Positions 17,834 to 43,252 of a stretch of DNA of 64,000 nt are shown here, piece by piece. The notes beneath the pieces were generated by a model. That model did no database searches. It saw nothing but the letters and a program-made list of their open reading frames with translations, and had not been told where the DNA came from. Source of the stretch: an uncultured Methanosarcinaceae archaeon (GTDB lineage: Archaea > Halobacteriota > Methanosarcinia > Methanosarcinales > Methanosarcinaceae); NCBI GenBank assembly GCA_963733675.1, contig CAVTET010000004.1, positions 256,001 through 320,000 of the forward strand, given 5' to 3'. The position numbers and the translations under genes were made by a program. The first letter of the stretch is position 1. Each line of letters begins with the position of its first letter.

Positions 17834-18154
17834 ATGTTGGAACTTGTAATTAAAAAAGTACTTGCAGTTTTGCTGTCAGTCCTTTTTGTAGTATCGTTGA
17901 CTACAGTGGCAGCGAGTGCAGATCGTGGGGACCATCATAGAGGACATGGTGACCGTGGCCACGGCTTTGGCTTTGGTGACGGCTTTGGCTTTGGTGGCTA
18001 TGGAGGATTTGGTGGCTGTGGTATGGGCTATGGCGGCTGCGGAGGCTGGGGCTATGGCGGCTGGGGCAGTTTGGGTGGCTATGGCGCCTGCAATGGCTAT
18101 AGTTTCTATGGCTGCGGTGGTTGTCCCGTGGGCATAGCTTATCCTTACTGCTAG
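17834..18154 (+). CDS. Secreted His/Gly/Cys/Tyr-rich low-complexity small protein
   Basis: KK + hydrophobic stretch + ASA signal peptide, then GHG/GFG/GGY/GGC repeats; GGAG RBS. Confidence 0.85.
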   Translation: MLELVIKKVLAVLLSVLFVVSLTTVAASADRGDHHRGHGDRGHGFGFGDGFGFGGYGGFGGCGMGYGGCGGWGYGGWGSLGGYGACNGYSFYGCGGCPVGIAYPYC

Positions 18155-18388
18155 CTAGTTAATATTATATTATAAAAGATATATTGAATAGAGTGAATTC
18201 CGATTTATATTTGGTTAAAACAAGCTACTATATAAACTTTATAAACAACTAGAATAAAATTATAATTTATCGGAATTTTCTATAATTTTTTTGTTGTTTT
18301 ATAAATAATTTTTTGCTCTATGAATTATTTTTTATTGTTAGTGATAATCTCTTTGCGTTGTCTATGTGATTATTATTTTCTTATTTTT

Positions 18389-18548
18389 CTATTTACGATG
18401 GTTGTTTAGGTTGATTAGTTCCAAGTGTTCCATGAGTTCCATATTCTCTATGAGTTCCAGAAGTTCCATGAGTCAGAGACCAACAATGTTTTCTTATTAC
18501 TGATGGCATTTAGAAAATTCGTAGATTTAATCCCAAAACCTGTGCATT
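18389..18548. repeat. Dispersed ~160-bp element with six 9-bp GTTCCANNN units, copy 1
   Basis: Homologous to 38453-38612 and 41990-42135. Confidence 0.85.
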
Positions 18549-19541
18549 TAAGGGCAAAAATGGGTAGAATTTCAATAAAACTTCTAGCTCAATAAATGAT
18601 TTATATAGGCACTATAAACAACCGGCTAAACCAATGGAGTTTATTGATTAATACTCTAAAGCTACGAGAAAGCTATCAATTACTTTGCAGCTACTTTTCA
18701 AGGCGCTAACGATATTCTGGACTCCACCAATTAATACCGTTGTGGTACCCATCATGCTCATGCCGCTGTGGCCCCCATGACCCCCTGCAGTTTACAAGAT
18801 CAACTTTTTTGACATTTTATATTAACACCGGTCACCTAAGCTAATTTAATAAAATAGAAGAGAATCGGTTGTGGACGATTTAAGGCCGTTTTTTGAGTAG
18901 GTTAGGATTTATCCTTCATTGAATAAATTATATACCTTTTGTAGGGGGCTGAGATGAAGTTTTTTTGACTGGCATGGATAAATTCCCCTATGCTATAATT
19001 CATGAGATAAGGCCCACGTAATGTTAATACTAATTAGCTTAAGTTAGAACTATATATATACAAAAGTATATAATCAATTAAATTTGATTATATTTAATAA
19101 ATTTCCCCGTATATTCAATTAGATATTCGATCGAGCTGTAGGCATCCCCTTCGCCCACAGCTCAAAAGATCACCGTTTTTGCATCTAAGATCAGCCGGCT
19201 CACCAAAGCTAATGAAATGAAGTGAAAAATCTCATTTTGAAAGCCTGCAAAAATCTATCACCGATGCTGACACAAGAGCATAAGTCAGTTTGAGAGTCAC
19301 ACAATCAATGATTCATTTTCGTACGGTAGGTCAGCTCATGATATTGTTACAATAAAGGATATTTATTTAAAATGATATAATATATGTAATATGATATGTT
19401 ATTTAATTTTTTAGACGTAGGGCCACACAGAAAAGAAAAAGATCTCTAACTTTTCATGACTTTCGAAAAGATGGTTTATAAGTTTATTTTCTGGTGTACA
19501 AAGGTTTCCCGAGGTTATAATCCATGAGATAGACTATATAA

Positions 19542-20396
19542 GGTTCCGTTGCAAAAACTTCAACAAAATATGTAAATCTATAAGTGATTAATAAAAATCA
19601 AAACATTCAAGGAAAATGTACTAACATTATAAAACTATACCAAATAATTGATTAATGTATTTGACTTCATTAAGAACAGAGTAATTTAAATCGATTACTT
19701 GTCCTTTTTTGATCATATTTATAGCTTCAATTCCTTTTAAAGTCTTATTAGCAGATCGAAAAGACTGAAATCCTAACATTGGATTAACGATTCTCTTTAT
19801 AGATCTGTGATCTTGTTCTATAATGTTATTCAAATACTTGATTTGTCGAATGCCTACGTTTTTAGGTAGTATTTTATCAATTTTTAGTTTATCTATAGCA
19901 GGTGGATAAGCTGGATTCTTATCAACGGTTATTAATCTTGGAATTTGATTATGATTAGAACTTAAAGCTTTCTTAAAGAATCTCTTTGCTGCTTTTCTAT
20001 CTCGTTTTGAACTTAACATGAAATCAATTGTATCTCCATTTGAGTCAACTGCTCGGTAAAAATATTTCCATTTACCTTTTACTTTGATATAGGTTTCGTC
20101 AACTCTCCATGAATAGTTTGTTAGTCTTAAATGTCTTCTTATCTTCTTTTCGATTTCAGGAGAATATTGATGTACCCATCTCATTATAGTACTGTGATCA
20201 ACTTGAATTCCCCTTTCTATCATCATTTCCTTTAAATTTCTATAACTTAATGCATATTTTAAGTACCATCTTACATTCAATAAGATAATTTCCCCTTCAT
20301 AATGCTTCCATTTAAAGGAATTAGATAGCATGTTACTATCTTTGGTTTTCTTTTTATTCTATTGTATCATTAGAAAGGATTTTTTGCAACGGAACC
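19542..20396 (-). mobile_element. IS6-family insertion sequence, intact copy (855 bp)
   Basis: TIRs GGTTCCGTTGCAAA; transposase 19627-20331; no TSD seen. Confidence 0.96.
19627..20331 (-). CDS. IS6-family DDE transposase
   Basis: FKWKHY, RWYLKY.LSYR, WRVDETY, TVDKNPAY, NNIIEQDHR. Confidence 0.96.
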   Translation of the reverse strand: MLSNSFKWKHYEGEIILLNVRWYLKYALSYRNLKEMMIERGIQVDHSTIMRWVHQYSPEIEKKIRRHLRLTNYSWRVDETYIKVKGKWKYFYRAVDSNGDTIDFMLSSKRDRKAAKRFFKKALSSNHNQIPRLITVDKNPAYPPAIDKLKIDKILPKNVGIRQIKYLNNIIEQDHRSIKRIVNPMLGFQSFRSANKTLKGIEAINMIKKGQVIDLNYSVLNEVKYINQLFGIVL

Positions 20397-25100: not shown

Positions 25101-25814
25101 ATGTTAAGTGCAAAACGAAACCGGATGAATAGCTAATGATTGTTTGATAAAATTTATGTTTTCTTGTCTTCATTGATGCATAGGTTTTATAGCAAAAAAT
25201 ATGCATAAACTAGAAAATAAAAGTTTTTTCGCGTTTTTTTAGATCTTAAATTGATTGTAGTTAATTGCGAGTTAAATTAACGATAAATTTTGGCAATCAC
25301 AGAAAATAGTAAAAGATTTCCGAAAACAATAAAAATATTTTTAGTATTAGATAGTTGTTTATTTTAAAATAATCTTTGGGAAAGTAATTTTTAATTAGAA
25401 ACTATTAAAAATAATTATTCAGTTGAAAAGTGATTACTTCAAGAAATTAACATCGAATCGAAATTTGATTTCCCCACAATATATTTTTGGTAAGATTATA
25501 CGTATTGCACATCAATTTAGAAATTGAAAGTATAAATTTTCCACTTAAAATAGCAAAGAGCGTATAATCTTAATTTATTTTGCTTCTTTAGGAAAAGCAT
25601 AATGTTAGGTTCTAACAAGTTTGGAAATAATAAAAAATAATTATTAATATTTAATTGCTCTTTGAATGTGAAATATTTAATGCAGCATTATTTTTCGTTT
25701 AGAAACTTTTTTTCGTATCATTAATTTAAAATAATGACGGTGACAAAAATAACACACCAATAAGCATGTACATCATCAGCACATAAAAATTGAGCAAAAA
25801 TAGGTATATAATTA

Positions 25815-26864
25815 ATGGGAAAACACGCATTTGAGAAGACAAAAAAGATACTGAATATTTTAACGATAATTTTTTGTTTTTTGATTTTGGCAACTATCCC
25901 AATCGCTGTGTGTTATGCAAAAGCACCAACCGAAGTTACAATGCCAGTTCCCACACTGGCTCCTATACCAATCAATGCAACAACAAACTACCAAGATTCT
26001 CAATGGTTGGCAATGTATCTATCAAATTCACTTGTTGTAACTAATGATATGAAATACCTAGGTACTGCATTAATAAACAACAATTTTACATCAGCTAACA
26101 ACGAGTTCACGTCAGTCTCTACATGTGCAAATACTTTAGACATAAATAGCCAGAAAGCTATAAATGATAGTGATTTATACAGTGTATCACCTGATTTACA
26201 AAGCGCAAAAGATGAATATCGACTACAAATGGTACAGGCCAAAAGTGCAGCAGTTTATATTTATCATGGAATCGAAGCTTATAATAAAGGAGATATTGAA
26301 GCCGGAAACTCGTATATGGAACAAGCTGTTCATAGTCTTTATTTAGTCACAAAACATGCTAATAAAACGGAAAAACTATTAAAAGCTTATATTCCTGCCT
26401 TGATCCAAGTACCAATCAATGCAACAACAAACTACCAAGATTCTCAATGGTTAGCAACGTATCTATCAAATTCACTTGTTGTAGCTAATGACATGAAATT
26501 CCTAGGTACTGCGTTAATGAACAACAATTTTACATCAGCTAACAACGATTTCACGTCAGTCTCTACATATGCAAATACTTTATATAAAGATAGCCAGAAA
26601 GCTATAAATGATAGTGATTTATACAGTGTATCGCCTGATTTACAAAGTGCAAAAGATGAATATCGACTACAAATGATACAAGCCAAAAATGCAGCCGTTT
26701 ATAATTATCATGGAATCGAATCTTATAAAAAAGGAGATATTGAAGCCGGAGACTCTGAGATGAAACAAGCTATTCAAAGTATTAATTCCATCACAGAACA
26801 TGCTAATAAAACGGCAAAGCTACTGAAAGCGGTTCCGTTGCAAAAAATTCAAAAAAATATGTGA
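25815..26864 (+). CDS. Exported/membrane-anchored protein with 148-aa tandem duplication, C-terminus cut by IS6
   Basis: N-terminal hydrophobic helix, PT linker, 444-bp repeat (25966 and 26410); last residues derive from IS6 end at 26831. Confidence 0.8.
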   Translation: MGKHAFEKTKKILNILTIIFCFLILATIPIAVCYAKAPTEVTMPVPTLAPIPINATTNYQDSQWLAMYLSNSLVVTNDMKYLGTALINNNFTSANNEFTSVSTCANTLDINSQKAINDSDLYSVSPDLQSAKDEYRLQMVQAKSAAVYIYHGIEAYNKGDIEAGNSYMEQAVHSLYLVTKHANKTEKLLKAYIPALIQVPINATTNYQDSQWLATYLSNSLVVANDMKFLGTALMNNNFTSANNDFTSVSTYANTLYKDSQKAINDSDLYSVSPDLQSAKDEYRLQMIQAKNAAVYNYHGIESYKKGDIEAGDSEMKQAIQSINSITEHANKTAKLLKAVPLQKIQKNM

Positions 26865-27029
26865 ATTTATAAGTAATGAATAAAAGTCAAAATATTCAAG
26901 GAAAATGTACCAACATTATAAAACTATACCAAACAATTGATTAATATATTTAACTTCATTAAGAACAGAGTAATTTAGATTATTGACTTGTCCTTTTTTG
27001 ACCACATTCATAGCTTCAATTCCTTTTAA
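26831..27029 (-). mobile_element. IS6 right-end fragment, inverted
   Basis: Reverse complement of the last ~200 bp of the adjacent copy. Confidence 0.9.
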
Positions 27030-27886
27030 GGTTCCGTCGCAAAAAAAATTCTTTCTAATGATACAATAGAATAAAAAGAAAACCAAAGATAGTAATATGC
27101 TATCTGATTCCTTTAAATGGAAGCATTATGAAGGAGAAATTATCCTATTGAATGTAAGATGGTACTTAAAATACCCACTGAGCTATAGAAATTTAAAGGG
27201 AATGATGATAGAAAGAGGAATTCAAGTTGATCACAGTACTATAATGAGACGGGTCCATCAATATTCTCCTGAAATAGAAAAGAAGATAAGAAGACATTTA
27301 AGACCAACAAATGATTCGGGGAGAGTTGATGAAACCTATATCAAAATAAAAGGTAAATGGAAATATCTTTATCGAGCAGTTGACTCAAATGGAGATACAA
27401 TTGATTTCATGTTAAGTTAAAAACGAAATAGAAAAGCAGCGAATAGATTCTTTAAGAAAGCTTTAAGTTCAAATCATAATCAAATTCCAAGAGTAATAAC
27501 CGTTGATAAGAATCCAGCTTATCCACCTGCTATAGATAAACTGAAAAATGATAAAATACTACCTAAAAACGTAGGCATTCGACAAATCAAGTATTTGAAT
27601 AACATTATAGAACAAGATCATCGATATATAAAGCGGATAATTGCTCCAATGTTAGGATTTCAGTCTTTTCAATCTGCTAATAAAACCTTAAAAGGAATTG
27701 AAGCTATGAATGTGGTCAAAAAAGGACAAGTCAATAATCTAAATTACTCTGTTCTTAATGAAGTTAAATATATTAATCAATTGTTTGGTATAGTTTTATA
27801 ATGTTGGTACATTTTCCTTGAATATTTTGACTTTTATTCATTACTTATAAATTCACATATTTTTTTGAATTTTTTGCAACGGAACC
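27030..27886 (+). mobile_element. IS6-family element, transposase inactivated by in-frame stops
   Basis: TIRs GGTTCCGTCGCAAA / TTTGCAACGGAACC; ORF pieces 27097-27420 and 27595-27801. Confidence 0.94.
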
Positions 27887-27970
27887 ATTCATAGTGTATG
27901 ACATACACAAAAAGATTGTAGAAATAATTTGCATCAAATTAAGGATTTCTACATAGCCCAATCTAAATAT

Positions 27971-28013
27971 GTTTCCATCCCAGTAGCAAGCTGCGGTGTA
28001 TTCAACTTAAATA
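27971..28013. repeat. Short REP-like palindromic repeat
   Basis: TTTCCATCCCAGTAGCAAGCTGCGGTGTATTCAACT, just past the regulator stop codon. Confidence 0.5.
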
Positions 28014-36884: not shown

Positions 36885-38124
36885 ATGGCACCAATAGATA
36901 TGGTAATATTTTTCCTTGAGATCTCTGTGATGCTTTTCATAGCACTCTTGTGCGGTCATGTAATGAGTAGTCTTCGTTTTCCTGCGGTCCTGGGCGAGCT
37001 TTTTGGCGGCATCATTCTCGGTCCGACGGTTTTTGGATGGCTTAGTCCAAGTACTTATCGATGGTTATTTCCAGCATCTGGTGCTATTTTTGAGGGCAGA
37101 GATGCACTAATCCAAATTTGCATCCTTTTCTTTTTATTCATTGCAGGTCTGCAAATGAACCTGAAGCTCGTTAGGAACAGCGGCATTCGCATAGCATGGG
37201 TTATCTTAATGGGCATATTGCTACCGTTTACACTTGGCTTCGGTATCATCTTCATGTTTTCGAATATGTGGGAGGGGTATTTTAAGGGCGAAACATTTTT
37301 TTCGCGATGTTTATGGGAACAGCATTGTCGATATCAGCTCTCCCGGTTATTGCTAGAACTCTCATGGACCTAGACTTGCTGAATACAGATATGGGGATGA
37401 TAATTATTGGGGCAGCAACAGTAAATGATCTGGTAGGATGGTCTTTATTTGCTTTTATTCTGAGCAATTTCGCGTCTAATAGTATCATTAATATTTCTCC
37501 TTACATGAATTTCATTCTAGTGCTTTTGCTGTTTGTTTTCATGCTCACTATAGGTCGGGTTCTGGCTCAGATAGCTCTTACCTGGCTCAAGTCACATATG
37601 CCCTGGCCAGGGGCCTTCCTTGGGATAATGACAATCCTTATATTGTTGACTTCGGCTTGTGCTGAAGCTATCGGGATACATGCTGTTTTTGGCGCTTTTT
37701 TGGTAGTCTTGCATTCTCCCAGATCCTAGAGAAACGGGATGAGGCACATGAGATAGTCTATCAGTTCGTCATATATTTTTTTGCCCCACTCTACTTTGTT
37801 TCAATTGGTCTACAGGTTAATTTCGTGGCATCTTTTGACCCGATTCTTGTGCTGATAGTTCTTTTAGTTGCATGTATAGGTAATGTGCTCGGTGTGATGC
37901 TTGGCTTTCGTGTGAGCAAGATGCCATTGCGGCAGTCTGCAGTAATAGGTTTTGCTTTGAACTCAAGAGGAGCAATGGAGATGATATTAGCTACTGTTGC
38001 CAGGAATGTGGGACTGATCAATGACCGCTTGTTTGTGGCTTTGGTTGTCATGGCACTGGTTACATCCATTCTAAGCGGCCTGATAATTAAAACATTGAAT
38101 GCTTTTGATCTTTCTATGGCTTAA
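36885..38124 (+). pseudogene. Cation:proton antiporter (CPA2/KefB-like), split in three frames
   Basis: PAVLGELFGGIILGP; SISALPVIARTLMD; IHAVFGAF; NSRGAME. Confidence 0.88.
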
Positions 38125-38452
38125 ACACTATAAAATTTCTCGATAATATATTCATGTTTTTCATTTTTGGTTTTAGTTTGCTTTGATTTTGGACTATCAA
38201 GGGCCTCAAAGACAACAAATGACAGCAATCTTTTGGGATGAAGCTTCTATTCCATTAATATTCATAATGTAAACATAAACAGTATACTAAAACATGTAAA
38301 GAAGTTTTATTCTATTAAAAAATAAGAAATGGATAAATTTTTAGAAATTTATTAATTGAGACTGTAATCTCAAAAAATTGGGTTTCTGATTCAGTTTATC
38401 CACATTTTTAATTTTGGTTAGAGCACTAGATATTTATTTTTCTCTTGTTTTT

Positions 38453-38612
38453 TTATTTATGATGGTTTTTTGGGTCAATTAGTTCCAAGTGTTCCATGAG
38501 CTCCAGATGTTCTAGGAGTTTCATAGGCTCTAGGAGTCATAAATCAGTAACCTTTTCTTATTTCGTATGGAACTTAGAAAATTCAAAGATTTTAGCACAA
38601 AACTTATGCATT
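38453..38612. repeat. Dispersed ~160-bp GTTCCANNN element, copy 2
   Basis: Homologous to 18389-18548. Confidence 0.85.
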
Positions 38613-38735
38613 ATTAATATAGATCAAATAGGTTTTATGTGATTGAACTGAGAATCAGCATAATTATATCTAACATTATATTGAATTTTAGATTGTATGG
38701 TAATTAATTATTATCAAAACATGCAAGGAATATAA

Positions 38736-39575
38736 ATGAAAATCAAGGGCTACTTAGTTTATTTTGTGATTTCAGCATTGGTTCTAATTTCCGGATGCAT
38801 GAAAACCCCTAATCAGCTATCAAGAGAAATTAATAGCAACGATAATTCAACTTTGGCTTCAATGTCTGGAAGTAATACTCTTTATCAGGTTTCCACAATC
38901 GATGCTCTTCTTCAAGGAGTTTATGATGGGATTCTTCCTATTGGCAAACTTAAAACTCACGGGGATTTTGGTCTAGGAACTCTTGATGGACTTGATGGAG
39001 AAATGATGGCTCTTGATAGTAATTATTATCAGTTCAAAACAGATGGAATTGCATACCCAATTTCTGACAAAATGACCACTCCATTTGCTACAGTCACCAA
39101 TTTTAAAGCAGATAAAAATTACAGTCTTGAAAAACCTATGAACATGACAGAGCTTGAGCATTATCTGGATTTGAACTTGCCTTCAGAAAATTTTTTTTAT
39201 GCTATTAGAGTTGATGGAAACTTCTCATACCTGAAAGCTCGAAGTGTACCCAAGCAAAACAAACCATATCCCAAGCTTGTGGATGTAGTGTCCAATCAAA
39301 CTATTTTTGAGTTTAAAAATGTGAGTGGCACACTGGTAGGATTCAGAACTCCGGATTATATGAATGATGTTAATGTTGCAGGGTATCATCTTCATTTTGC
39401 CACCACAGACAGGAGTTCAGATGGACATGTCATTAATTAAAAGTTGAGAATGGAACTGTTGCTCTCGACACAATAACAACTTTTATCATAGAATTTCCCA
39501 CCAGCGGCAATTTTTCAAAAGTAAAATTAGGGCAGGACTTGAAAACTGAAATAGATATTGTTGAAAAAAATAATT
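38736..39575 (+). pseudogene. budA: Alpha-acetolactate decarboxylase, lipoprotein-like N-terminus, frameshift near 39440
   Basis: YQVSTIDALLQGVYDG, GDFGLGT, GYHLHF, GHV; C-terminus continues in another frame. Confidence 0.85.
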
Positions 39576-39873: not shown

Positions 39874-40161
39874 TTGATAAATCTCTTGGATTTATTGGGC
39901 GGTAGAAATCGTACATGGCATTTTCAGCAAGATGTTTCAGGATTTCTTGGTTTCACTGATGCGGAGATTTTGATACAAAAACTATGCATATATGAGATAG
40001 GAGAGAATCCAATCAAAGTCATTGATCCCGTAATTCTACCCAAAGTTGTCCATGCATCATGTGGGAAAGTTATTCGAGCTGAACTTATCATTTATCTCCA
40101 TGAATGGGGTAGGATCCATCATTCTCGTACATTCCCACAGATTGAAGGTCCGAATTTTTAA
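39874..40161 (+). CDS. Hypothetical protein or gene fragment
   Basis: 95-aa ORF only, no motif recognised. Confidence 0.3.
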   Translation: MINLLDLLGGRNRTWHFQQDVSGFLGFTDAEILIQKLCIYEIGENPIKVIDPVILPKVVHASCGKVIRAELIIYLHEWGRIHHSRTFPQIEGPNF

Positions 40162-40293
40162 TATCTTAAGACTCTTAATTTGTTTTTCTCTTAGGCGAGA
40201 AAATGTTTAGATATCAATAGGTTTTTCAGATTAACTATTGTTTACAAAATCGTAGTGAGCTACTTGGAAAGGTAAAATTGAATAACTGAATAG

Positions 40294-41146
40294 GGTTCCG
40301 TTGCAAAAAATCCTTTCTAATGATACAATAGAATAAAAAAAACCAAAGATAGTAACATGCTATCTAATTCCTTTAAATGGAAGCATTATGAAGGGGAAAT
40401 TATCTTATTGAATGTAAGATGGTACTTAAAATATGCATTAAGTTATAGAAATTTAAAGGAAATGATGGCAGAAAGGGGAGTAAAAGTCGACCATACAACA
40501 ATCATGAGATGAGTACATCAATATTCCCCTGAAATAGAAAAGAAGATAAGAAGACATTTAAGACCAACAAATGATTCGTGGAGAGTTGATGAAACCTATA
40601 TCAAAGTAAAAGGTAAATGGAAATATTTTTACCGAGCAGTTGACTCAAATGGAGATACAATTGATTTCATGTTAAGTTCAAAACGAGATAGAAAGGCAGC
40701 GAAGAGATTCTTTAAGAAAGCTTTAAGTTCTAATCATAATCAAATTCCAAGATTAATAACCGTTGATAAGAATCCAGCTTATCCACCTGCTATAGATAAA
40801 CTAAAAATTGATAAAATACTACCTAAAAACGTAGGCATTCGACAAATCAAGTATTTGAATAACATTATAGAACAAGATCACAGATCTATAAAGAGAATCG
40901 TTAATCCAATGTTAGGATTTCAGTCTTTTCGATCTGCTAATAAGACTTTAAAAGGAATTGAAGCTATAAATATGATCAAAAAAGGACAAGTAATCGATTT
41001 AAATTACTCTGTTCTTAATGAAGTCAAATACATTAATCACTTGTTTGGTATAGCTTTATAATGTTAGTACATTTTCCTTGAATGTTTTGATTTTTATTAA
41101 TCACGTATAGATTTACATATTTTGTTGAAGTTTTTGCAACGGAACC
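40294..41146 (+). mobile_element. IS6-family element, transposase with TGG>TGA nonsense near 40510
   Basis: Both TIRs; near identical to other copies. Confidence 0.95.
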
Positions 41147-41255
41147 ATTTCCCCTTCATAATGCTTCCATTTAAAGGAATTAGATAGCATGTTACTATCT
41201 TTGGTTTTCTTTTTATTCTATTGTATCATTAGAAAGGATTTTTTGCAACGGAACC
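41147..41255 (-). mobile_element. IS6 left-end fragment, inverted
   Basis: Reverse complement of the first ~109 bp of the IS, ending in TIR. Confidence 0.9.
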
Positions 41256-41989
41256 GAAAATTGTAAATTCCCATAAGCTACGGAATGATAGAGTTATCAA
41301 AAAATAGATGAACATAGTAAAACATGATCAAATCTTGAACAGTATATTCTTTCTCTATCAGTTGGCTATACACTTGAAAGAACTCAAAAGAAGAAGTTAA
41401 AAAAGTAAATGGGCATAGGTTTTTTGAGATTACAGAGTGGTGGTAACATTAATTGGAAAAATAAACGAAGTTATCTCAGATGTCCTATAAGATAACATTA
41501 CTTATTATTATATAAACAAATGTTAATAACGATAAATTATTGTATTTTTGAGAAGTACTGTGAATAAATGTAAATAATAAGGATTACTCCATTTAAAGTC
41601 AAGATTGCTCATTACATAATTGTCAAAATTGATTTAATTTTAAGCTCTCTGACTTCACAGGAATGCATTAGAGATATAAACTCAATCCTTAACAAGACAA
41701 CGTTCATAACTGACGCGCTATGAGCATCAGCTACGTATAAAAAATAGATCTTATAAGTTGTGGGTAAGATACATATACATCAAAGAGTTCCTTGACGATT
41801 TTTCGCTCTCAGACACGTAATCAAGCTAAGACATCTTTTTTGGGATCTAGGCCATAGCGCATTTCTGAATCCTAATATATTGATTGAACACGAATGGATA
41901 TATACTTTTCACATATTTATTACATAGTAATAATACTAACTGAATAAACTCTGATTAACTAATCCTAATCCCACGGATCAATAAAGCTA

Positions 41990-42135
41990 TCTTTTTGGTT
42001 AATTAGTTCCAGGTGTTCCATGAGTTCCATATGCTTTATAAGTCCCAGAAGCTCCATGAGCACTAGATTAATACCCTTTTCTTATTTCGTGTGGAACTTA
42101 GGAAATTAAGAAATTTTGGTTCAAAAACTATGCAT
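41990..42135. repeat. Dispersed GTTCCANNN element, copy 3
   Basis: Homologous to copies 1 and 2. Confidence 0.85.
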
Positions 42136-42248
42136 CAATAAAACAATAGAGACATAACAATTGGCTCAGAATTCTACTTTTTTGCAATAAAAGAAAAAAG
42201 AATACAGAGATAATTCGATTTAACAGAATTTTGTGTATATTGCCAAAA

Positions 42249-42578
42249 TTAATGTGTGTAATTAATAATTTTTAAGGTATCACCAAGTTTCCTGACGATG
42301 GAGTCTTTCATTGCTTGTGCAAGGACACGGGAAACCTATAGGTGTACCCTTAAATATGCAAGAGGCTAATACGATTGTGTCAGACCCCAGTTTTATCATT
42401 TTTATCACTCTTGTTACAGCTTTTTTACCTAGGCAGCCACCACACGTATTGATACCAATTACTTCAATATCTTCTGTAATCCAGTCAAATGCTAGTTTCT
42501 TTTCTTTCATCACTTTAAAACAAGCAGTACAGGGCACATATCTTCTGTTTGAATGCATCTGATTAAACCAGCTTTCAT
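42249..42578 (-). pseudogene. CGGC-domain protein, frameshifted
   Basis: MKAGLIRCIQTEDMC/TACF...TCGGCLGK...LASC...FPCP/...IINYTH. Confidence 0.85.
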
Positions 42579-43252
42579 AAGATATTCTCTTTACTTTTTT
42601 CGCAAATATCAATCGTTTTTTGTTCTGCAGACAATACTTTTATGTAATAAAGAATTATTTTTTTGTATTTATCGGGGAGCCTTATAGACACAAGTGAACC
42701 TGCATATGATAACTATTTCCCGAGATTTTGCGTTTGTTCCTTTGTTAGCTTGCATGAGAACAAAACGTAACGATAAGAACCTGTCTAATAGCTACATTTT
42801 TATTCTAAAATGTAGCTATTCAGTTAAACAGATTAGCGAACTTTAAGTATTTTTCGATATCTGAAACTTCCGAAGAACTGCAGAAAACCGGAACCATTTT
42901 GCAGGAATAGAATACGCTTTAATAAAGTCATCACGAATGATTTGTAGAAAAAATAAAACAGTTGATCAGTTTTGACTATGTTAAAAACTCATATAAAGCG
43001 CGAATTTCTCAGATAGCTGAGAAAAGGAAACCAGAGGGGACTATTTAGCCTATCAAAAATAAGTTGGTAGGTATCTACTTTTGATGCAATAGGTACTTAT
43101 GAGTACTAAAATGATTGGAAAATAAAGAAAATAATCAATATTCGACAGTTGGATAAAATCAGCCTACAGAAATTTGCTCATTGAATCCTCGTAAATATGG
43201 ATACTAATAGTTTTTTCCGGGCTAATAGTTCTCAAAAAGGATCAATTTGAAT

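Follow-up and report, generated by a model that had tools for sequence, protein, structure and literature searches.

A dispersed repeat module with an internal 9-bp tandem array in uncultured peat and soil Methanosarcina

We describe E, a repeat module of ~190 nt that occurs in about 90 copies in the genome of an uncultured Methanosarcina (metagenome-assembled genome G000; 3.92 Mb in 15 contigs, 36% G+C, 92% complete). On balance, we favour the reading of E as a mosaic repeat that is non-autonomous, specific to one lineage and equipped with an internal minisatellite, and not as a stand-alone gene. The analysis set out from a stretch of 64,000 nt (C4:256001–320000), referred to below as the window, in which a preliminary description had placed three copies in the same orientation. 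All three were found at these places on the minus strand, with profile limits slightly wider than those first given. The count of three holds for the window, the total for the genome being about 90 and not three. The features of the window that belong to E, to its attached modules and to a related foldback family (A′-P) are the following.

18362–18551, minus strand: E copy 1 (nhmmer match C4:274362–274551), full length at ~190 nt, with no module A, B or C attached
18517–18547, minus strand: 5′ module of copy 1, a decayed palindrome P (ATGCAYAG-N15-CTRTGCAT; profile positions 6–36)
18413–18469, minus strand: 9-bp array of copy 1, six units NTGGARCTN
18389–18469, minus strand: predicted micro-ORF of copy 1, an open frame of 26 aa, MELLELIENMELMEHLELINLNNHRK
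38423–38613, minus strand: E copy 2 (nhmmer), with its ORF at 38453–38524 and its array at 38477–38533
38219–38430, minus strand: module B (~210 bp) on the 3′ side of copy 2
41991–42140, minus strand: E copy 3 (nhmmer), which diverges from the family consensus past the array
41965–42057, minus strand: ORF of copy 3, 30 aa
42113–42248, minus strand: A′ arm of the foldback family (nhmmer C4:298113–298248), directly upstream of copy 3 and overlapping its P module; included in alignment A2
39938–39991, plus strand: partial A′-P match without an array (nhmmer C4:295938–295991), also a weak match to the E profile
25160–25208, plus strand: partial A′-P match without an array (nhmmer C4:281160–281208)

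The shared tail first reported, TTTTCTTATT...TAGAAAATT...CAAAA..TGCAT, was found in all three copies and the inverted unit TGGAACT only in copies 2 and 3. The three minus-strand ORFs read as claimed, and those of copies 1 and 2 share their stop codon in the alignment (profile positions 162–164). The six units of copy 1 are five GTTCCA cores and one degenerate unit at 9-bp spacing. This copy has neither module B nor an upstream A′ arm, and its 5′ module is homologous to the centre of the A′-P foldback family. The match of copy 3 to the family ends at profile position ~150 of 194.

The genomic copies, whose collection the preliminary description had proposed, were gathered with an iterated nucleotide profile (nhmmer, E≤1e-5), which yielded 75, then 94 and then 93 matches in G000. 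The repeat family is far beyond chance level, and all 24 arrays of at least three consecutive TGGARC-N3 units in this genome fall within E matches. The 5′ edge of E is ATGCAYAG, with a weakly conserved TTTTCAyyr ahead of it. Profile positions 6–36 form a decayed palindrome (ATGCAYAG-N15-CTMTGMAT) and positions 55–64 a near-invariant block, AATAAGAAAA. Six consensus units NTGGARCTN occupy positions 84–140 (4–9 units across the copies), followed by a variable ORF end at positions 141–164 and, beyond position 164, by an A-rich tail that often ends in TTATATAG. Conservation varies strongly along E, between 0.2 and 2.0 bits, and blocks such as AATAAGAAAA and TTGGAACTAATT hardly vary at all; the most conserved stretch of the whole element is ATGGAACAYYTGGAACTAATTA.

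With BLAST over 41 relatives, E was detected in G000 and G019 only. A sequence-only model built from 32 E copies (R1; E≤0.001) gave matches in 14 of 59 genomes of the genus, six of which (G000, G019, G055, G064, G066 and G067) had at least 28–44 matches each. The weak matches in the eight other genomes were mostly rejected as E, being simple TGGAAC-type tandem repeats with a period of 9, 14 or 18 bp; among these genomes were G006 with a coding repeat, G062 with the 5′ module alone and G065 with one diverged E copy. An exact 20-mer gave 46 matches in 185,579 species genomes. Five MAGs (Methanosarcina sp. fen_51 and sp. bog_70; Methanosarcinaceae MFD01828, MFD01476 and MFD01223) accounted for 45 of them and a Rhodoferax MAG for the remaining one. 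E is confined to a small set of uncultured Methanosarcina from peat and soil. Full-text searches yielded no description of such a repeat family from Methanosarcina, and Rfam gave no match at gathering score in the 64-kb window; we therefore regard the family as undescribed.

The copies are intergenic, as stated before: only one of 73 E matches overlaps an ORF of at least 110 aa. Their orientation to the neighbouring genes is random (20, 19, 16 and 16 cases for the four arrangements) and their distance from them varies from 8 to more than 5000 bp. An iteron-like array with a role in replication, one of four options offered in the preliminary description, is at odds with ~90 dispersed copies that have random orientation and unrelated neighbours. 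When copies within larger duplications were set aside, the closest independent pairs in G000 were 97, 91 and 90% alike, and most were 70–87% alike.

Two classes of ORF are found near E more often than expected. Of 297 small signal-peptide ORFs, 43 have a copy within 2 kb (24.1 expected), as do five of seven ORFs with His runs (0.6 expected); members of both classes are paralogs and thus not independent counts. The window ORF at 17834–18154 (plus strand), which has no Pfam match, belongs to a family of ~40 small secreted-protein ORFs (further examples are C1:663374–663889 and C1:935791–936033). This family shares a near-identical signal peptide, MLKQ..KKVLAILLAVLFV.SVTAAAVSA, but the mature parts differ greatly, some having His runs and others being rich in Gly/His or Gly/Tyr. 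Two overlapping ORFs of 162 and 140 aa were seen at 36885–37729, immediately downstream of copy 2. The second matches only the middle of a Na+/H+ exchanger family (profile positions 108–238 of 375), which suggests a split or frameshifted antiporter gene.

Similarity between copies often extends downstream of E, in subfamilies. Module B (~210 bp, longer in some copies) has 19 matches in G000, and 17 of these are located directly 3′ of E. Module A follows E in 17 of its 38 matches and module C, which ends with a strong hairpin and a T-run, in 15 of 35. Repeat modules were also matched at C4:209774–210362.

At its other end, E is connected with a more widespread family. In its first 40 nt, E consists of the central palindrome of A′-P, a MITE-like foldback family that is present in 56 of the 59 genus genomes. 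Of 165 A′-P matches in G000 (C7:71403–71664 and C4:754361–754581 are examples), 140 are without E, 14 lie just downstream and 11 just upstream of it. Six foldbacks are complete (170–261 bp) and have arms that begin with CAGTGTACYGAAAGTTCTGTAAA; a partner transposase would be expected to share the ends CAGTGTAC.... In the A′-P copies, the palindrome P pairs in 80.6% of cells, compared with 27–52% when the partner was slid. Its covariation was not above that of shuffles (211/500).

E itself has no terminal inverted repeats. An A′ arm in the same direction lies just upstream of 10 and just downstream of 13 of the 73 E matches, and an inverted A′ arm within 400 bp downstream was found for only one of them. 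Between pairs of A′ arms in G000 (92% complete), no transposase ORF was found. The earlier observation that neither terminal inverted repeats (TIRs) nor target-site duplications (TSDs) are evident was thus borne out by the copy edges and the inverted-arm search, and no TSD could be read in the loci compared. Among the four options, a relation to a mobile element comes closest: the 5′ module is indeed the centre of a foldback, but TIRs and a transposase partner did not emerge.

We also considered the insertion sequences of the window. An IS6-family element (DDE_Tnp_IS240) at 19627–20331 on the minus strand carries an intact 234-aa transposase and has the ends GGTTCCGTTGCAAAAA; a second IS6-family element at 40294–41147 has an in-frame stop, with a partial extra IS end at ~41150–41255. 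Contigs C1, C3, C5 and C15 carry IS6 copies that are 99% alike, and G066 has many more. IS6/IS240 was rejected as a partner of E, since the window copies end in GGTTCCGTTGCAAAAA, unlike the ends of E. A match to the end of a known IS had been named in the preliminary description as a refuting condition; the IS6 ends in the window show no such match.

Comparison with related genomes showed that collinearity breaks off at copy edges. In G019, it extends along the window as far as 18366, where copy 1 has its 3′ edge, and E is lacking at this site. G066, G055, G067 and G065 are collinear up to 38233–38235, within the last bases of module B of copy 2. No clean empty site was seen when copy 1 was compared with G019 or the G066 loci L066, L078, L081 and L082 with G000; the flanks diverge past one edge, so that neither a boundary nor a target duplication could be read. 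At the one clear orthologous site (G066 L065 and C4:654993), the right flank is 94–99%, module C ~85% and E ~83% alike, whereas G000 lacks module A and the left flanks bear no relation to each other. Between G066 L081 and C7, a similarity of 95% includes the first ~40 nt of E and ends there. The 24 copies of G066 are 75–87% alike to their best match in G000, no closer than paralogs, and two copies of G055 reach 93%.

One recombinant was found. The region C4:740–742 kb of G000 contains, in this order, an E copy (E1), an mntP-like ORF (183 aa), a second E copy with module B (E2) and a second mntP-like ORF (170 aa). We take the mntP-like ORFs, from their sequences, to be manganese exporter-like. 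These tandem paralogs (C4:740695–742793; L003 937–1488 and 2281–2793) each come after an E copy of the same direction. In G055 there is a single E, which is E1-like up to the ORF tail and like E2 with module B after it, and the first mntP-like ORF is missing. This hybrid is what recombination between two direct copies leaves.

We propose that the 5′ 40 nt of E derive from the central palindrome of the genus-wide A′-P foldback family. In place of the right arm of A′-P, E carries a spacer with the invariant AATAAGAAAA, the 9-bp minisatellite and the A-rich tail, and modules A, B or C can be attached downstream. Slippage may shift the length of the array by whole units. Recombination between copies would swap or delete flanks, modules and intervening genes, and synteny would consequently break at copy edges. 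The frame would stay open mainly because NTG-GAR-CTN codons seldom mutate to stops and because the array is conserved as nucleotides; array and ORF would be without a selected product. E may have been spread by some enzyme, or by recombination and segmental duplication. Membership of the MITE class is counted against by the lack of a TIR, of a readable TSD in the loci compared, of a transposase partner and of near-identical recent copies.

A peptide encoded by the array had been suggested in the preliminary description, and we analysed the ORF in this respect. Among the 69 copies that span the array, the MEL/MEHLEL frame starts with ATG and stays open and in phase in 45, and it is broken in the other 24. 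The ORF is therefore real and common, but the following results give little reason to assume that it is selected. In neutral simulations, 62% of the frames were intact at the array's own substitution and indel rates and 39% at the upstream rates, compared with 65% observed. The observed intactness thus equals the neutral expectation and follows from the conservation of the array at the nucleotide level, not from avoidance of stops. Stops among single-change codons were not depleted (13 observed, 17.8 expected).

We scored amino acid exchanges by BLOSUM, with normalisation for codon and number of changes (26 independent pairs; kappa of 2.3 from the data). In the array, the peptide frame obtained z ~5, a value that none of 2000 simulations reached, and the other sense frames obtained z ~0 (+1 frame) and z ~−3.9 (Gly-Thr frame). 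The peptide tail gave no coding signal (z ~−0.5). The value of z ~5 is pseudo-replicated, because it rests on about four kinds of variable site that are repeated in six units.

Frame-shifting indels among the copies had been named as evidence against a peptide. In 124 distinct copies, the array has 17 such indels besides 19 indels of whole units (9, 18 or 27 bp), yet their rate is below that of the upstream part: per kb, we found 2.6 in the array, 7.9 upstream, 7.4 in the tail and 22.5 downstream. The array has about three times fewer small indels than the upstream part and also diverges less from the consensus (13.5% and 18.4%, respectively). Together with the uneven conservation of E, the lower divergence and the smaller number of indels in the array suggest constraint or homogenisation rather than free decay. 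The uneven conservation, the lower array divergence, the absence of recent copies and the nearness to signal-peptide and His-run ORFs all count against E being pure junk.

Synonymous differences, such as those noted in the preliminary description, are in excess in the peptide frame (frame b; 254 observed, 176.6 expected). The +1 frame has an excess as well (260 observed, 173.3 expected), so this property is not diagnostic of a peptide. Fourfold degenerate Leu sites keep G in more than 90% of units. Outside the third unit, CTG occurs 105 times as a Leu codon, compared with eight CTA, two CTT and no CTC, and TTG occurs 107 times, compared with three TTA and five TTT. In an AT-rich genome (36% G+C), this dominance of CTG and TTG indicates that the 'silent' G of TGGA is kept. 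In the peptide frame, 27 of 108 sixth units have Lys instead of Glu, and 39 of ~110 second units have Gly in its place. In favour of the peptide frame, ATG occurs more often in units one and two than in the units that follow. A Shine–Dalgarno-like TGATC ends 8 nt before the ATG; the same word peaks at 4 nt in long ORFs of G000, and we rejected TGATC as a working Shine–Dalgarno sequence because of its wrong spacing. No look-alike peptide was found in the ESM Atlas (best score 0.75). We conclude that the open frame looks more like a by-product, for the most part, of the 9-bp tandem array than like a selected peptide gene.

A structured RNA, another of the four options, found no support. In addition to the negative Rfam search, RNAalifold on E returned no pairs on either strand, consensus folding of the alignments A1 and A2 likewise returned none, and the mean MFE z of 30 copies was −0.31 for the sense and −0.53 for the antisense strand.

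Eleven RNA runs each contained 5–13% of the words of the window, and four of these were compared, all as metatranscriptome contigs, which cannot give strand, ends or level and may include DNA carry-over. In all four runs, contigs at least 95% alike to the window were found in the bin 38008–38674, which holds copy 2. One X6 contig departs from the window sequence at 38602 into an unlike flank and thus derives from another copy or strain. The bin 38675–39341 was free of contigs in all four runs and the bin 37341–38007 in three, and there was next to no contig cover in 42010–42676, which holds most of copy 3; this absence carries no weight. In each of the four runs, by far the highest summed contig depth (100–650) was reached at 26669–28002 and 40009–41342, the second of which is the IS6 copy.

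Several alternatives to the mosaic repeat were weighed. The one that fares best, although we consider it unlikely, is a module acting at the nucleotide level: on a repeat scaffold, the phased TGGAAC array and the invariant A-rich blocks beside it would serve as a platform for a DNA- or RNA-binding protein, or else act as an sRNA or sponge without structure. This would agree with the core TGGA-CT that is kept even at sites synonymous in the ORF, and with the conservation of the array, which exceeds that of the rest of E and peaks in ATGGAACAYYTGGAACTAATTA; minisatellite homogenisation, however, would keep the core as well. Likewise, the confinement of all 24 such genomic arrays to E and the position of copies near certain gene classes above expectation are in favour of a function, but distance and orientation to the neighbouring genes are random and a third of the arrays are damaged or shortened. 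The 9-bp phase does not fit the helical repeat of DNA, and there is no known binding protein. The cover of copy 2 by RNA-library contigs counts in favour, although such contigs give neither strand nor ends of any RNA.

It appears distinctly improbable that E is a micro-protein gene family, in which the intact copies would be genes for acidic peptides of 23–35 aa, with (Met/Leu)-Glu-(Leu/His) triplets ahead of a variable tail. Transcription would then start within the 5′ module and terminate at the T-runs of downstream modules. The intact, ATG-started frames and the z ~5 specific to one frame, with the other two sense frames at or below zero, are what such genes would show, and so is the threefold deficit of frameshifts relative to the upstream part. 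The second codon position is the most conserved one (1.74 bits, compared with 1.21 and 1.38). Moreover, all five copies that leave the consensus past the array keep an open frame ending in ...IY(I/T)(N/D)(E/K)Y, the lone diverged copy of G065 keeps an open frame of 38 aa, and RNA-library contigs cover copy 2. On the other hand, the signal is confined to the repeat and its z is pseudo-replicated, intactness equals the neutral expectation with stops not depleted, and the tail is unconstrained. Synonymous sites are not relaxed, the radical changes from Glu to Lys and Gly are common, and a Shine–Dalgarno sequence at working distance and an ESM Atlas look-alike were both lacking. Finally, a third of the copies are broken (24/69), and the G066 ortholog (L065) of an intact G000 copy has a TGA at codon 5.

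We give a similarly small chance to a combined proposal, according to which the array module is a domesticated cassette on a MITE-derived scaffold and is tied to metal handling. It would provide either ~45 intact dispersed genes per genome for Met/Glu/His-rich peptides of 23–35 aa or a platform of phased TGGAAC units to which a nucleic-acid-binding protein specific to the lineage would attach. The link to metals is drawn from the five of seven His-run ORFs within 2 kb of E, the small secreted ORFs nearby and the two mntP-like paralogs, each behind a same-direction copy.

Hardly tenable is the origin of the array as a relic of coding repeats, from a Gly-Thr-X region of a secreted protein gene read as GGA-ACT-NNN: a 474-aa signal-peptide ORF in G006 does have near-identical CTGGAACATCTGGAACT repeats, read as GTSGT... 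and, after a phase change, as LLEHLELEHLE..., but conservation in E is highest at third positions of the GT frame, this frame has z ~−3.9 and no conserved signal peptide or start (the ATG at profile positions 77–79 is present in under half of the copies), and G000 has no such array outside E. The G006 ORF (L055 1341–2765, minus strand), in which the CTGGAACATCTGGAACT DNA is read as (SGTGT)n and is followed by nine LLEHLELEHLEIAVT repeats, represents a genuine repeat protein in two frames or else a gene with a frameshift.

The preliminary description was thus supported in part as to its interpretation, and the mosaic repeat with an internal minisatellite remains the reading that we favour. Other repeats have some of its properties. 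Enterobacterial REP/BIME elements consist of imperfect palindromes and short motifs in variable mosaics, are strictly intergenic and serve as recombination substrates. E resembles them in combining a palindromic unit variably with other motifs, in its intergenic position and as a recombination substrate; it differs in its domain of life, its unrelated sequence and its 9-bp array with an ORF. The LDR and SIB/QUAD repeats of Escherichia coli are type I toxin–antitoxin loci with 4–5 copies, in which a defined antisense RNA accompanies a hydrophobic membrane peptide. Like E, they were first seen as intergenic repeats, each with a very small ORF, whereas E has ~90 copies and its predicted peptide is acidic and non-membrane, with Glu at every third residue.

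E shares with MITEs a small size, multiple intergenic copies and a narrow lineage, and its 5′ module comes from a foldback element with inverted arms. It is unlike them in that TIRs, an autonomous partner and near-identical recent copies were not found and no target duplication could be read in the loci compared. An internal array of varying unit number, as in E, is also reported for a MITE, that of Porphyromonas gingivalis with an internal minisatellite (PMC4596501). Methanosarcina is reported to be MITE-rich for an archaeon, and Methanosarcina spelaei is listed among the MITE-richest archaea (PMC11602168). Small mobile repeat units of enterobacteria are reported to be 100–170 bp long and intergenic and to contain open frames predicted in silico, with no proof that these are translated (PMC2759123). 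They are like E in being intergenic repeats with predicted open frames, and unlike it in that they are MITE-like with inverted ends, the frame of E being made by a tandem array in triplet phase.

Our findings call for caution in the discovery of small ORFs, since a triplet-phased minisatellite can yield an open, 'conserved' and synonymous-looking micro-ORF in dozens of copies without selection. If one of the minority readings were true, E would be an unusually large archaeal family of micro-proteins or of binding arrays. For the uncultured peat and soil Methanosarcina clade, the E family shapes the genomes: synteny breaks are marked by its copies, and in at least one case a manganese-exporter-like paralog located between two E copies is missing in a relative.
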